Positions 36,920 to 58,579 are shown, counted from the first letter of the stretch. The stretch: 64,000 bases of DNA from an uncultured virus (IMG/VR IMGVR_UViG_2643221868_000001) (IMGVR_UViG_2643221868_000001:1-64000); one strand, 5' to 3'. Notes: generated by a model from the letters alone, not told the origin. Program-made: numbers and translations.

Positions 36920-37150
36920 TTACGCGGGGCGCTGGCGCCGTCCGCGTGATTTCTGCGCCTCCGGCTCCGGTTCCGCCGGGGCGGGCTCCGGCGCCGCCTC
37001 TGGCGCGGCCTCCTCGAAGGTCACGAGGCCATTGCCCCGCAACTCCACGGCCCGCGAGCGGGAAACTTGATAGGGCTGGTCGGTCGCCTGCTTCAGGTCC
37101 GGACCCTCGAGATAGGTCCGGACCGGCTGGACGATCACGTCATCGGCCAT
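36920..37150 (-). CDS. Small post-capsid protein (Element 1)
   Basis: Near-identical to 55248..55478; homologous to helper 30336..30614. Confidence 0.75.
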   Translation of the reverse strand: MADDVIVQPVRTYLEGPDLKQATDQPYQVSRSRAVELRGNGLVTFEEAAPEAAPEPAPAEPEPEAQKSRGRRQRPA

Positions 37151-37161
37151 GGTCGCCTCCC

Positions 37162-38433
37162 CTATGCCAGCGTGGCGGAGAGGCTACCGGTCACGAACGA
37201 CGCCGGACGCTTCACAGTGAAGGCCAGGCGCTCCTCGGCACGTAGGGTGATGAGGTTGCGGCGGAAGTTGTCGCCGTCTTCCGACGAGGCCAGTACCTCG
37301 ATTCCCATCCGGTCGAAGATCTGTGCCTGCGTCTTGAACGGACCGACGAGGAAGGTGCCCTTCGGCATCCGGTTCGTAGTCGCCACCGGCGTCTGCCAGA
37401 TGCGCTGAAGGACGGACGCCTCGAACGGCGAGTTGCCGATGTAGCGGCCCTGCGTGTCCTTCATGGCCTGGAGCATCCGCCAATCGACGGCGTTCAGGAC
37501 CATGCCGTCCACCTTCCAGTTCAGCGCCTCCACCTGAGCGATGGCCTGGATGAGCACGTCGAGGGGCGAGCCCGTCGCGTTCGTCCACTGCTTCACGAAG
37601 GCGCTGGCCTGCGGGACGATGCCGAGCAGGTTCTGGCCGGTGCCGTCGCCGAACAGAAGCTGCGCGTCCTCGACGTCGGCGAGGCCGTTGCGCGCCTCGG
37701 CGTCGATGGTGGCGGCGAGCGCCGGGGCGTCGTCGATGATCTGCCGGCTGGCGAGGAAGTAGTGCGCCAAGGTGCGAACCGGCGCCGTCACCTCCTCGAA
37801 GGCAAGGTCCGATTGCGGCTTCAGCGCGCCTTCCGCCACCATGGCGGCCCCGATGGTGCGGCTGGTCATCCGGGGGTAGGAGACCGCATTGGAGATGGTC
37901 GTCCCCTGCGCGACGAGATCGCGGACCGTGAGAGCATTCCAGGGCAGAAGAGCCGGATCGCTGACACGCTGGTCGCGGCCGACGAGAGAACCGCCGGAAG
38001 CCGTCACGCTGGTGATGTTCTTGTGCTCGTCCTCGGTCGAGGCGACTTCGGCACGAAAGCGCAGGCCCTGCCGGTCGCGGGAGCCATCGAACGACTTGTA
38101 TTCCGGGGCCTCAACGAACCGCTGCCCCCAGGATTTCGGGCCGGCGAGAGACCCGCCACCGCCCCGCCGAGCCGCCTTCTGCTCTGCATCGGCCAGCCGG
38201 GCGTCCATGTCGCCGAGCTTCGACTTCACCTCGCCCATTGCGGCCTCGGCCTTGCCCAGGCGCTCGTCGGTCCTGGTGAAGAGGCCCTTGGTCTCGGTGT
38301 GGTTGGCGTCGAGGCGCTGCATCACAGCCGAACCCAGGTTCTCCGGGTTGTCGAAGGCGATGCGGAAGCGGCCGATGGTGTTGGCGGCGAGGAAGGCGGC
38401 GGAACCGCCGGCCAGGGTGTTGTGACGGTTCAT
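37162..38433 (-). CDS. HK97-family major capsid protein (Element 1)
   Basis: RLADAEQK, VAEGALKPQSD, ASRQIIDDAP, QLLFGDGTG and RAEERLA motifs. Confidence 0.92.
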   Translation of the reverse strand: MNRHNTLAGGSAAFLAANTIGRFRIAFDNPENLGSAVMQRLDANHTETKGLFTRTDERLGKAEAAMGEVKSKLGDMDARLADAEQKAARRGGGGSLAGPKSWGQRFVEAPEYKSFDGSRDRQGLRFRAEVASTEDEHKNITSVTASGGSLVGRDQRVSDPALLPWNALTVRDLVAQGTTISNAVSYPRMTSRTIGAAMVAEGALKPQSDLAFEEVTAPVRTLAHYFLASRQIIDDAPALAATIDAEARNGLADVEDAQLLFGDGTGQNLLGIVPQASAFVKQWTNATGSPLDVLIQAIAQVEALNWKVDGMVLNAVDWRMLQAMKDTQGRYIGNSPFEASVLQRIWQTPVATTNRMPKGTFLVGPFKTQAQIFDRMGIEVLASSEDGDNFRRNLITLRAEERLAFTVKRPASFVTGSLSATLA

Positions 38434-39125
38434 CGGTTCAAGCCTTTCAGGTCGAGGAGATTGCGGTCGAGCGCCTTCACGAGGTCGCGCAACATTGGAT
38501 CGTTGGAGGGTTGGGGTTCGTCGGAGAGTGCGGCCCAGCCGCCGGCCACGATCTGCCGGGCTGCGGCCTTGGACAGACCGCTCTTTCGAAGCAGGGTTTC
38601 GAGTTCGCCGCGCGCCGCGAGCTTCACGGAGCCGACGCGAGCGAGGGAGTTGGACGGCTCGTCCACGATAGAGACTTCGTGGAGGTTGATTGCCTTGAGG
38701 AGGCGCCTGGGTTCGCCGACGCGCTTGCCGTTAACAGCGCCGCCGGCCGGGACACGGTAGCCGATGGAGAGGCCAGAGATGGCCCCATCCTTCACCCGCT
38801 CGTAGTAGTGCCGCCCCCGGTCGGTGTTCATGCCGGATATGCGGCCCCGGACATGCAGGCCCTTGCTGTCCTCTGACATGGCCTTCCACACGCCAATCGC
38901 GGGCTCGCCACCGTACTCCGGCAGACCGTGATTGAAGTGCATCGGGACGGCAGGCAGGCCGCTCTGGACGCGACGGTCGAGACTGGCCTTGAAGGCGCCG
39001 GGCGCGATTGTGTCGCCATGGCTATCGATATTGCCGAAGAACGCGCCGTAGCCTTCGAACTCACCGGCATCGGTGTTGCCAGCGAGCTTTATTTCGAGCG
39101 GGGCTGAGAGGGTTTCGAGGTCCAT
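38430..39125 (-). CDS. HK97-family prohead protease (Element 1)
   Basis: FEGYGAFFGNIDSHGD, MHFNH, GLSIGY and LHEVSIVDEPSN motifs. Confidence 0.92.
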   Translation of the reverse strand: MDLETLSAPLEIKLAGNTDAGEFEGYGAFFGNIDSHGDTIAPGAFKASLDRRVQSGLPAVPMHFNHGLPEYGGEPAIGVWKAMSEDSKGLHVRGRISGMNTDRGRHYYERVKDGAISGLSIGYRVPAGGAVNGKRVGEPRRLLKAINLHEVSIVDEPSNSLARVGSVKLAARGELETLLRKSGLSKAAARQIVAGGWAALSDEPQPSNDPMLRDLVKALDRNLLDLKGLNR

Positions 39126-39322
39126 CGATCACCTTCGTGGATCAAAGCGACGGACACGACAGACAGACCGCTCGAAGCGGTGTCGGTAGGTGTCCAGTTC
39201 AGCCTTGCCGCCTAGCGTCCGCCAGTGCGCCGAAGGTGTCTCGTCGAAGATGCCCCGTGCCACACGGTGACAGCCGAACCGATCGATAACGCCTAAAGCT
39301 TTACGGCAAGCGATAGGTTCCG

Positions 39323-39607
39323 TCAATGGCTGAGATGGCTGCCGATAGCCTTCCGGTCGCGGGCCGCGGCCTGTAGCTCGGGTGAGATGTTCGCCAAAGC
39401 TGTGCCGGCCGAGATGATCCGAACGGCGCTCTTAGCGACACCTTCAACGTCGATCAGCAGAGCGCAGGCGACAACGAGCCCCATCTCAGCCACGTCGGCA
39501 GGCTTGGCGCCGGCCTCGATCAGCTCGCGGAGCTTGTCGCGGATGGCTTCCTGCAACGGCTCGGAGCGGAGGTCTTCGTGGAGCGAGGCGTAAGGGTGAT
39601 CGGACAT
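39323..39607 (-). CDS. Conserved satellite protein, homologous to 56985..57278
   Basis: YASLHEDL..EP and SPELQ shared between the two elements. Confidence 0.7.
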   Translation of the reverse strand: MSDHPYASLHEDLRSEPLQEAIRDKLRELIEAGAKPADVAEMGLVVACALLIDVEGVAKSAVRIISAGTALANISPELQAAARDRKAIGSHLSH

Positions 39608-39780
39608 GGTGTCTCCAGGGGTGGGGGTGAGTGAAAAGGTTCGGCCGATAGGGCGTGGACCGCATGGGAAGCGGCGTTCGCACTCGACAGAATTTTAGGA
39701 AGGGGGGTTTCGGCCGGATCGGGCTAAAGCCGATGGAGCGGCGAACGAAAAGCGGTTTAAACGGTGTATCAGTTCGTGCG

Positions 39781-57278: not shown

Positions 57279-57565
57279 TCTTTGTCGGAAGGGGGGGGGC
57301 GGGGGGGGGCAGCACCCCCAAGGAGTGAGGCGCTTTCCGCAGCACTCCGCACGTCGGATGGTGCGGATTTCAAAGGGGTTTCATAGGGACGCGAAGTGGC
57401 AGCAAACCTTGTGCGATCTTAGCATCGGCTAACTTTAAGCATGGCGGCTAAGATGCTGTGCCCGAATTGATTTCGGCGCTCTGCCCGAACCGATTTCGAG
57501 GAAAAAAATCAGCATTTCCTCAGGGCCTTACGTGCGGACTCCGCACGCCACACCAACCGTCCAGG

Positions 57566-57637
57566 GGAAAAAAATCTGCGAATGCGATCCCATGCGATGC
57601 AGGCCCCTTAGGGCTGTAGAGTTTCGAGGTGCCCCCC
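57566..57637 (-). other. cos-like packaging region (Element 2)
   Basis: AAAAAATCTGCG..TGCGATCC..TGCGATGC..GGCCC(C)TTAGGGC..GAGTTT..CCCCCC matches 40290-40360. Confidence 0.55.
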
Positions 57638-57738
57638 TGCCTCCCTCAGGGCCAAGCGCTGCGGACTAAAACAGCTTCGGTGCTTGTGTTAGAAACCGTG
57701 GAGCTATGCCGCATTGGACGCGCTAGCGGAGGCCATCC

Positions 57739-58221
57739 TTGCACAAGTACCTTGCTGTACTAAGAACTGTGGCGCTCACCGTGGTAGCATTCGCTGCCGG
57801 CGCTGTTTTGTTCACGGACAACCTGTCAAAGCTCTACGATGCGACACAAAGAGTTTTAAACCCAGTTGGTGAGCCGTCAGATATTGTCTTACGAGATCCG
57901 TCGCCCATTTTTCTGGGAAGGTCTCGCTCTATTGAGGGGAAGGTAAGCGATACAGTTGCTGTTATTGCGGAATTCATCATAACAAAGAAGTCGGAACCAG
58001 AAATTGAAAACTGTGAAATCTTGTTCATCTTGGGGGATAGGTCGTACAAGGACAACGATAGATATATGGCTTTATCAAAGGGCAAGTTCGATAGAACGAT
58101 TTCCGGATTTTTCACTTTCGATAAACAGAGTTATTCGAAGCAACTGAAAGTTCGGATTGAATGCTCTAATGCAGTCACAGGGTGGCTGGCGCTGCAAATG
58201 CCAAAGCTGCCACTGAAATGA
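57739..58221 (+). CDS. Cargo membrane-anchored hypothetical protein
   Basis: GGAGG RBS; N-terminal TM segment; AT-rich. Confidence 0.65.
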   Translation: MHKYLAVLRTVALTVVAFAAGAVLFTDNLSKLYDATQRVLNPVGEPSDIVLRDPSPIFLGRSRSIEGKVSDTVAVIAEFIITKKSEPEIENCEILFILGDRSYKDNDRYMALSKGKFDRTISGFFTFDKQSYSKQLKVRIECSNAVTGWLALQMPKLPLK

Positions 58222-58264
58222 GCCCCGCGCGCATCGCGCATGTAGATAAAACAGGCGCATAGGG

Positions 58265-58579
58265 CTAGCGAAGTCCATGCCGCCTCGCCCTCGCATCCGC
58301 CGTCTTCGTCGTGTGGCATGAGCCGCACCGCAGCCGGACATTCGCCTCGTCCAGGCCGAGGCCGCCGTCGCTGATCTCCACCACATGATCGCAGTAGATG
58401 CGGGTTCCTGTGCGTCCGCAGTCCTCGCACTTGCGGCCTCGGGTTCGGAGGAGCCGGTTACGAAGCTCTCGCCATTCCGGCGTGCTGTAGAATGGCTGGC
58501 CGGGCTCGGTTCCCCGGCTCACTGTTATGCGGGGTGCGAGGGTGCGCAGCTGTGGCTTGAGGGTGGTGAGGCGAGCCAT
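58265..58579 (-). CDS. HNH endonuclease (Element 2)
   Basis: Near-identical to 41252..41566. Confidence 0.9.
   Translation of the reverse strand: MARLTTLKPQLRTLAPRITVSRGTEPGQPFYSTPEWRELRNRLLRTRGRKCEDCGRTGTRIYCDHVVEISDGGLGLDEANVRLRCGSCHTTKTADARARRHGLR

Follow-up and report, generated by a model that had tools for sequence, protein, structure and literature searches.

Phage-inducible chromosomal islands (PICIs) that sit inside a helper prophage have been described as helper-embedded PICIs (HE-PICIs), represented by 11capE of E. coli NRG857c and 491 relatives (Tommasini, Mageeney, Williams 2023, PMC10111431). 11capE lies within the lambda-type capsid gene E of its helper, in the same orientation, and bears a capsid gene of its own that differs at the att site. 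In the accessible part of that paper all published HE-PICIs come from Enterobacterales, share one integrase clade and are tied to lambda-type late genes (Phage_cap_E), a 'late zone' captures helper late genes, two HE-PICIs occupy different genes of one helper, and 21 of 29 reference Gram-negative PICIs have a capsid gene, which is not required for transfer. Capsid-forming PICIs (cf-PICIs) have 11 core components, at least 9 of which are needed, including terL, portal, head-tail adaptor and connector, and HNH and serine protease genes are occasional in PICIs, according to the available portion of PMC10085698. Here we analyzed bases 1-64000 (the window) of an 87,768-bp IMG/VR provirus record (IMGVR_UViG_2643221868_000001; CheckV completeness 92%). 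The record holds a Methylobacterium siphovirus prophage, the helper, on the minus strand, and its HK97-type major capsid gene is split in three by two related integrative elements, E1 and E2. We consider it likely that E1 and E2 are two related PICI-type satellites in the helper-embedded configuration, each inserted there by its own tyrosine integrase.

The split capsid gene was evaluated with a six-frame scan using the Pfam Phage_capsid model. Profile coverage was contiguous across the three helper pieces, and the same scan also detected two full-length capsid genes, one in each element (Table 1). The insertion sites of E1 and E2 differ and lie about 220 bp apart in the one gene. Measured from the att cores E1 is 15,863 bp and E2 is 15,181 bp, in agreement with the similar sizes claimed in an earlier note on this DNA. 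Reading of the junction sequences demonstrated that the helper frame is exactly continuous across both insertions, and joining the three pieces at the cores resulted in a single open frame of 444 codons with a natural stop at its end. Short direct repeats and similar arm sequences are found at each junction, with an integrase next to it. The key genes of both elements (integrase, replication, HNH, capsid) are co-oriented with the helper capsid gene on the minus strand. The satellites' own capsid genes differ from the E1 core at 4 of 14 positions and from the E2 core in its second half, and this differing att sequence should prevent self-targeting by E1 and E2.

The empty sites were seen in other sequencing runs. 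A 36.8-kb contig of run X2, which derives from a different sample, connects position 30773 to 46637 across 14 shared letters, skipping 15,863 bp, and carries on beyond 46872 with capsid sequence. Contigs of runs X2 and X3 depart from the window sequence at 46872 and 46869, respectively, and then run into capsid sequence; parts of the window lacking cover in runs X2, X3 and X5 carry no information. The X2 contig spans both sites uninterrupted, so that a close helper relative exists in which neither site is occupied, and the insertions are precise. The earlier note had proposed that insertion knocks out the helper capsid. The gene is indeed interrupted, but the knock-out appears conditional, as the restorable 444-codon frame and the relative with empty sites suggest that excision should restore the helper capsid gene.

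Both elements carry a reduced head module. Read in the direction of the helper late genes, E1 consists of two small HTH-like ORFs, a primase-helicase, a PHROG 'endonuclease', HNH, a trypsin-like gene on the opposite strand, a cos-like block, a TerS-like ORF, a 94-aa ORF, an S78 protease, an HK97 capsid gene, a post-capsid ORF, an AAA_15 ATPase, unassigned ORFs and an integrase pointing outward. E2, read the same way, consists of HTH-like ORFs, an O/RepA-like initiator, HNH, a 273-aa ORF on the opposite strand, a cos-like block, a 97-aa ORF, a capsid gene, a post-capsid ORF, a 247-aa ORF, tail-tip genes, a BrnT-family toxin gene, an anti-repressor-like gene and an integrase. No tail, holin, portal or connector genes were detected in E1, and E2 has no protease and no detectable TerS gene. 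All of the genes that the earlier note had listed were recovered where it had placed them: HNH, cos-like site, TerS-like gene (by weak fold match), protease, capsid and post-capsid protein in E1, and HNH, cos-like site, capsid and post-capsid protein in E2 (by Pfam, BLASTP and block alignment). The note had overlooked the conserved 94/97-aa gene of both elements and the tail-like genes of E2 at 53077-54504.

Portal and large terminase were searched for with six-frame Pfam scans of the whole 87.8-kb record. Phage_portal and TerL_ATPase matched the helper only, as the earlier note had supposed, and the SPP1_portal and Terminase_6N models had no match in the record. ORFs of the elements and helper were compared all-against-all by BLASTP at 1e-5; no E1 or E2 ORF resembled the helper portal or TerL, and the elements have no homologues of the helper ORFs between the helper post-capsid gene and the tail terminator. 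The only element ORFs longer than 353 aa are the integrases, the capsids, the AAA_15 ATPase and the primase-helicase. The claim that connectors are also absent stands to the extent that none was recognised: Phage_connect_1 (PF05135) and Phage_HCP (PF05521) matched nothing in the elements, nor the helper's own connectors, and these models are uninformative for that reason.

A cos-like non-coding block of 80-110 nt is common to the elements and the helper. E1 and E2 are 71% identical over 119 nt of this block, E2 matches the helper (68042-68116) at 78% over 78 nt (E 1e-9) and E1 matches it (68042-68118) at 67% over 79 nt (E 5e-4). The absence of portal and TerL together with a cos-like block shared with the helper points to dependence on the helper portal, TerL and tail, and we think it likely that E1 and E2 are satellites with this dependence. 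For the 142-aa ORF of E1 at 39781-40209 no match was found with Pfam or in profile and sequence searches of PDB sequences. The best PDB match of its AF2 model (pLDDT 76) was the HK97 small terminase (8pop/6z6e), a weak match (probability 0.87-0.96, E 0.2-1, target TM-score 0.55-0.62), the BFVD matches at ranks 2-14 bear the name terminase small subunit in 12 of 13 cases, and a 48%-identical homologue (P0007) is named 'phage terminase small subunit' by JGI. Nothing but a short C-terminal motif aligned with the helper TerS, and this match was not significant (E 0.069). We assign this ORF as TerS-like with moderate confidence. Since E2 lacks a TerS and has the block closer to the helper's, and E1 has a TerS-like ORF and a more divergent block, E2 may use the helper TerS and E1 its own.

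Table 1. Features of the helper prophage, E1 and E2, numbered from the first base of the window; values after family names are E values.
Feature	Position	Strand	Evidence or remark
Helper tail genes	~8.7-30.3 kb	-	tail tube, terminator, 1213-aa tape-measure-sized ORF, 1289-aa J-like ORF
Helper J-like gene	15852-19721	-	
Helper ORF just after capsid gene (post-capsid homologue)	30336-30683	-	
Helper capsid gene, 3' piece	30690-30773	-	last ~27 codons and stop; Phage_capsid profile positions 253-279 (six-frame match 30710-30790)
E1 att core beside integrase	30774-30787		AAGAACATGATCAC; exact 14-nt repeat with 46637-46650
E1 tyrosine integrase (Int1)	30854-32287	-	ORF 477 aa; Pfam Phage_integrase 2e-26
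E1 AAA_15 ATPase, candidate defence gene	34693-36606	+	637 aa; Pfam AAA_15 2.5e-23; low GC, 41.5% at 35-36 kb
E1 post-capsid protein	36920-37150	-	76 aa; phrog_20799 2e-10
E1 HK97-type major capsid	37162-38433	-	423 aa, delta domain; Pfam Phage_capsid 1.3e-48
E1 prohead serine protease (S78)	38430-39125	-	Pfam 8e-24
E1 94-aa helical ORF	39323-39607	-	at the place of TerL and portal
E1 TerS-like protein	39781-40209	-	142 aa; fold matches
E1 cos-like block	40277-40359	.	non-coding
E1 trypsin-like gene	40488-41228	+	low GC; weak LmuA and PDC-M35A matches
E1 HNH endonuclease	41252-41566	-	Pfam HNH 2e-9
E1 primase-helicase	43294-45135	-	Pfam AAA_25 2.5e-36; PHROG primase/helicase families
E1 small HTH protein	46248-46475	-	Pfam HTH_17 0.0086, below cut-off; homologous to E2 61653-61856
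E1 att core, second copy	46637-46650		14 nt
Helper capsid gene, middle piece	46651-46861	-	Phage_capsid profile positions 174-261 (six-frame match 46627-46872)
E2 att core	46862-46872		11 nt; GATTGGGCCCG in coding orientation
E2 tyrosine integrase (Int2)	46937-48136	-	399 aa; Pfam Phage_integrase 2.6e-20
E2 anti-repressor-like (P22_AR_N)	48138-48764	-	Pfam 1.3e-27; phrog_524 Ant 3e-41
E2 BrnT-family toxin of toxin-antitoxin pair	51043-51312	+	Pfam BrnT_toxin 5e-20
E2 J-like fragment	53077-53538	-	153 aa, N-terminal; PHROG tail family; 37% to helper 15852-19721
E2 NlpC/P60 protein, full-length	53510-54001	-	PHROG tail family; 59% to helper 19649-20233
E2 minor tail protein, full-length	53950-54504	-	PHROG tail family; 68% to helper 20246-20758
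E2 247-aa protein	54450-55193	-	42% to ORF in M. bullatum element (L022)
E2 post-capsid protein	55248-55478	-	
E2 HK97-type major capsid	55488-56705	-	405 aa; Pfam Phage_capsid 3.8e-51
E2 97-aa small helical protein	56985-57278	-	
E2 cos-like block	57555-57637	.	
E2 HNH endonuclease	58265-58579	-	Pfam HNH 4e-9
E2 replication initiator	60324-61385	-	phrog_270 5e-38; Pfam HTH_36
E2 att core, second copy	62043-62053		GACTGGGCCCG; one synonymous mismatch to first copy
Helper capsid gene, 5' piece	62054-63070	-	Phage_capsid profile positions 11-178 (six-frame match 62039-62530)
Helper prohead protease	63091-64008 (past window end at 64000)	-	Pfam Peptidase_S78 7e-26
Helper portal	64155-65909 (beyond window)		Pfam Phage_portal match 64785-65771
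Helper TerL	65920-67608 (beyond window)		Pfam TerL_ATPase match 66940-67413
Helper TerS candidate	67605-67994 (beyond window)		129 aa
Helper cos-like block	68042-68118		between helper HNH and TerS genes
Helper HNH gene	68169-68504 (beyond window)		

The head genes of the two elements are closer to each other than to those of the helper. The E1 and E2 capsids are 79-82% identical and each is 41-52% identical to the helper pieces, with 69-77% nucleotide identity in places among the three capsid genes; the E1 capsid also matches HK97 gp5 in the PDB (3qpr, E 7e-62). The HNH proteins are 89% identical between the elements and 41-42% identical to the helper HNH, the post-capsid proteins are 95% identical and 45% identical to the helper homologue, and the E1 protease is 54% identical to that of the helper. 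The integrases, Int1 and Int2, are 42% identical. In the post-capsid protein a conserved N-terminal domain (about 45 aa) is followed by a Pro/Ala/Glu-rich linker and a basic RGR-rich tail, and the gene for this protein stays next to that of the capsid both in the helper and in 7 of the 8 elements of the family described next.

Related elements were detected in Methylobacterium genomes. Capsids 62-90% identical to that of E1 were found in 6 of 146 genomes, among them M. bullatum (L022), M. phyllosphaerae and Methylobacterium sp. WL119; some capsid match at E 1e-20 or better was found in 25 of the 146, the remainder beyond the six being at most 49% identical. Genes of the window were mapped onto 10 kb on either side of each capsid. 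Counting E1 and E2 the capsid gene is present in all eight elements (one frameshifted, in G421), the 94-aa family and the post-capsid gene in seven each, the protease in five, HNH in four and the TerS-like ORF in three (E1, L022 and, partial, L060), and every satellite capsid is accompanied by the conserved small protein or the post-capsid gene. The cos-like block is clearly present in five of the eight, including three of the six related elements (L022, L060, L062) in which all three queries matched just upstream of the capsid module; L061 additionally matches the helper block only, in an orientation opposite to its capsid gene. A helper-like portal or TerL was found in none of the eight, and none lies within 10 kb in the six related loci. 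In three genomes scanned with Pfam the nearest Phage_portal match lay on another contig or at a distance of over 600 kb, and TerL_ATPase was found in only one of the three, about 2 Mb away.

To place the capsids, a maximum likelihood tree of 24 sequences was calculated; the frameshifted G421 capsid, L042, L045 and L058 (internal stops), fragments L053-L055 and the family-sample loci L028, L029 and L031-L034 were left out. The seven intact satellite capsids formed one clade with 100/100 support on a branch of 0.98. The nearest relative of the helper capsid in the tree was the uninterrupted capsid of G356, a genome holding a TerL 81% identical to the helper's. The ratio of nonsynonymous to synonymous substitution rates (dN/dS) was 0.13-0.22 for the capsid, 0.10 for HNH, 0.26 for the protease and 0.17-0.36 for the small protein, indicating that the satellite genes are evidently under purifying selection.

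Wider searches returned more distant matches. The E1 capsid as query against viral contigs gave 14 loci, all at most 45% identical, and in a 401-genome family sample only G001 exceeded 50% identity to it. Int1 as query against viral contigs gave no relatives from 4 pattern-matched stretches. An alignment search with Int1 and Int2 gave 17 metagenome and 9 viral loci, the best full-length matches being 38-40% identical; no capsid-like sequence adjoined those integrases by tblastn, and the Pfam capsid model found none in the L082 and L083 records and an intact capsid in the L084 record. No further capsid-embedded case was seen among these integrase-search loci, on contigs that are mostly short. 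A C-terminal fragment of helper-type capsid beside a BrnT gene in G405 (L063) was considered as a split capsid and rejected, as no integrase or satellite gene adjoins it.

The small protein of 94 aa in E1 and 97 aa in E2 is 44% identical between the elements and has homologues in 5 of the 6 related loci. Its model consists of four helices (pLDDT 77). No Pfam or PHROG match was found, no fold match had an E below 3.9, and only 2 database homologues were recovered. The protein was tried as a TerS candidate and rejected, with no match to the helper TerS candidate and no fold or family match; as these comparisons were all negative the 'TerS-like' label was moved to the ORF at 39781-40209. The small protein might be a head-size determinant, a scaffold or a packaging redirector.

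Some further features concern the boundaries. Homologous GC-rich hairpins with a T-rich tail lie on the minus strand at 46578-46592 and 61982-61999, each about 45 nt inside the upstream boundary of its element in the helper late-operon direction. These could halt helper late transcription entering the element, polar on the downstream head-completion and tail genes, or alternatively be part of attP. Terminator-like sites in 46000-62300 were not enriched (16 versus 12.9 +/- 3.1 in shuffles). Unitigs of the probable source run abut exactly at the left att core of E2 (46862-46869), where there is no long repeat, and this break might be a graph branch from a minority excised form. The only tyrosine recombinases in the whole 87.8-kb record are those of E1 and E2; an integration function of the helper's own was not found in the 87,768 bp.

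Integration, regulation and replication genes were also annotated. The Int1 ORF is likely over-extended, as the start of Int2 aligns with an internal Met that places the start near 32044 and gives about 396 aa. The stretch at 32046-32351, upstream of that start, is homologous to the C-terminal part of the anti-repressor-like gene of E2, so E1 seems to hold a remnant of such a gene. The product of 46248-46475 in E1 is a candidate excisionase or AlpA-like regulator; the HTH_17 matches in the elements are weak (E 0.0086 and 0.08) and no clear AlpA was recognised. The E2 initiator gene contains three 24-nt direct repeats (iterons) at 60895-60967, the probable replication origin of E2. For the 247-aa protein of E2 there was no Pfam or PHROG match, and an Atlas search gave hypothetical proteins only.

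The G+C content of the window is about 65%, with low-GC islands at 34-36, 40-41, 50-53 and 57-59 kb. Low-GC cargo is located at 34693-36606, 40488-41228, 51043-51312 and 58607-59428 and includes a phrog_7805 protein. Each element has two cargo hotspots, one from HNH to the cos-like block, on the opposite strand, and one from the late genes to the integrase. The E1 AAA_15 ATPase has PADLOC matches to AriA (6.5e-25), Old (6e-15) and AbiLi. By its sequence this low-GC cargo, with defence-like and toxin-antitoxin genes, looks typical of satellites.

We propose the following course for the two elements. On induction each element would excise, restoring the helper capsid frame, and would replicate by its own replicon, using the primase-helicase in E1 and the iteron-binding initiator in E2. 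The genome would be cut at the cos-like site and packaged by the helper TerL with the satellite HNH assisting, together with the TerS assigned to each element above; HK97-like terminases require HNH. The heads that receive this DNA would start from the helper portal and acquire helper tails, and the satellite capsid protein, matured by the E1 or the helper protease, probably forms those heads. Genome capacity scales with T number, and a smaller shell would be adequate for genomes of 15-16 kb. We regard small heads and substitution of the shell as plausible, and infer the timing of excision, packaging by the helper TerL, the satellite capsid as the shell and the head size.

This course is close to the intermediate strategy put forward in the earlier note, in which a satellite substitutes its own shell and borrows portal, TerL and tail. 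Borrowing is in line with the absence of portal and TerL, but E2 carries two full-length tail-tip homologues and a J-like fragment. Integrative elements with a partial HK97 module, their own integrase and their own replicon were indeed found, but since 11capE and capsid-bearing PICIs were already published the intermediate strategy is largely a known picture of Gram-negative PICIs and HE-PICIs, and the premise that PICIs only remodel helper capsids was incomplete given the 21 reference PICIs with a capsid gene (PMC10111431, accessible part). We put forward only tentatively that an alphaproteobacterial lineage converged on embedding in capsid genes and practises 'shell swapping', with its own HK97 heads on the helper portal, the helper TerL and a shared cos site. 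It is equally tentative that this is a stable stage between capsid-remodelling PICIs and cf-PICIs, with two satellites co-occupying one gene by means of retargeted integrases.

Several results weigh against such shell-building, helper-embedded satellites. As the capsid gene of Gram-negative PICIs is reported to be dispensable for transfer, carriage alone is no proof of shell-building. The 11capE integrase is only 22% identical to Int1 and Int2 (E 2e-5 and 0.03) in a pairwise comparison with this one HE-PICI member, and the layout of E1 and E2 runs from HTH-like genes through replication, HNH/cos/capsid, cargo and (Ant) to an integrase that is last and points outward. The TerS assignment in E1 involves weak fold matches, and the excised form was absent from the contigs of the source run (X1), which drop rare variants. 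Within the family the protease is lacking in E2 and two relatives, HNH was undetected in 4 of the 6 relatives and the G421 capsid is frameshifted, so that by sequence the module is variable and some copies appear to be decaying. Tail-gene pieces adjoin the capsid module in E2, L022, L024 and L061. Helper-type TerL was found in 21 of the 146 genomes at E 1e-30 or better, but the six element-bearing genomes have no full-length helper-type TerL and only a 124-aa fragment in G468. This scarcity fits elements awaiting an incoming helper and equally fits stranded remnants. On the tail genes themselves, the M. bullatum element holds a J fragment similar to that of E2, and in L024 and L061 the post-capsid gene is followed directly by tape-measure-like ORFs. 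Such tail genes could stem from capture of late genes or be left over from an ancestral phage.

E1 and E2 could be true satellites whose capsid genes, and the E1 protease, are captured late genes and not their own shell, with particles made mainly of the restored helper capsid and the satellite capsids dispensable, co-assembling or interfering with the helper capsid, or tuning capsid size. A dynamic late zone that captures helper late genes is described in the accessible part of PMC10111431, E2 shows capture of tail-tip genes, excision restores the helper capsid frame, and the protease and HNH are variably present among relatives. We nevertheless find this account rather unlikely. The satellite capsids are under purifying selection and form one old clade, distant from all phage-type capsids of the genus. 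This argues for a lasting, element-tied function rather than recent capture. They also keep the full delta domain and are always paired with the small protein or post-capsid gene.

Descent from full-size temperate phages with att sites in the capsid gene, reduced by deletion and no longer mobilised, would account for an exact HK97-like gene order minus TerL, portal and everything after the post-capsid gene. The tail-gene pieces in E2, L022, L024 and L061, the prophage-like outward integrase and the frameshifted capsid of one relative agree with such remnants. We consider this improbable, as 8 elements have this reduced architecture in common, with capsids that are 10-32% different and under purifying selection, the 7 intact ones forming one clade. 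In E1 and E2 the ORFs for integrase, replication, HNH and capsid are intact, and the conserved cos-like block is one that the helper also has. The two elements are similar in size (15.2 and 15.9 kb) and are co-oriented with the helper late gene in which both att sites lie. Mis-joining of contigs through homologous capsid sequences can be given hardly any credence. The three capsid genes do reach 69-77% nucleotide identity in places and source-run unitigs break at regions repeated between E1 and E2, but unitigs of the source run (X1) cross the E1 junctions (30787 and 46637-46650) without differences, each junction has a direct repeat, adjacent integrase and similar arms, and the helper frame is exactly continuous across both. 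Together these data favor two helper-embedded PICI-type satellites.

In the accessible part of PMC10111431 helper-embedded satellites are reported in Enterobacterales only, through one integrase clade, and here the host is an alphaproteobacterium. Finding this lifestyle there too, with an HK97-type helper and distant integrases, suggests that targeting of the capsid gene may have arisen more than once. A family that has a capsid with or without protease, HNH and TerS, and never portal or TerL, is a tractable system for the role of satellite capsid genes. With their candidate defence and toxin-antitoxin cargo the elements may shape phage resistance in plant-associated Methylobacterium.

E1 and E2 resemble HE-PICIs in that they interrupt a helper late gene, which joins back into the 444-codon frame, are co-oriented with the interrupted gene and carry a capsid gene that differs at the att site. 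In accession NC_017634 the 11capE locus contains int, HTH, primase, SSB, capsid, head decoration and defence genes, with neither a portal nor a terminase gene, and E1 and E2 likewise carry their own capsid without portal or large terminase. They differ from HE-PICIs in their host, Methylobacterium, which was not encountered in a limited literature search, in an HK97-type capsid (Phage_capsid) as opposed to the lambda-type Phage_cap_E, and in integrases outside the 11capE type, judged on the one member compared. Their module adds HNH and the cos-like block, and in E1 also the TerS-like gene and prohead protease. In the accessible part of the HE-PICI report the zones run from int and AlpA upstream through Bro and replication to late genes, an order that E1 and E2 do not follow, and the published pair of HE-PICIs used two genes, whereas E1 and E2 share one gene at two sites.

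Gram-negative PICIs such as EcCICFT073 are 10-20 kb with an integrase, a regulator, primase/replication genes and often a capsid homologue and terS, and lack portal and connectors, as far as the available portions of PMC10085698 and PMC10111431 describe them. Integrase, replication and capsid genes of this core set are present in both E1 and E2, and terS in E1 only, by fold. E2 departs from PICIs in having no detectable terS and three tail-family ORFs, which SatelliteFinder forbids in the part of its description available. E1 and E2 share with cf-PICIs such as EcCIEDL933, which are about 14-15 kb and steal helper tails as E1 and E2 would, the HK97-type capsid and HNH and, in E1, the protease and a terS-like gene, and differ in that terL, portal, adaptor and connector were not found, with connector models that miss the helper's as well. 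SaPIbov5 is a cos-packaged satellite of a Gram-positive host whose Ccm is a homologue of the helper HK97-fold capsid, and it is not known to encode a portal or terminase. It is integrated in the chromosome and not in the helper, and Ccm is not known to replace the shell but redirects the size of helper capsids. A PICI embedded in a capsid gene with a capsid gene of its own was thus already known from 11capE (PMC10111431, accessible part). What this locus adds, as read from its sequence, is an alphaproteobacterial host, distant integrases, a different layout, an HK97 module with cos, HNH, TerS and protease, two insertion sites in one gene and a separate capsid clade.

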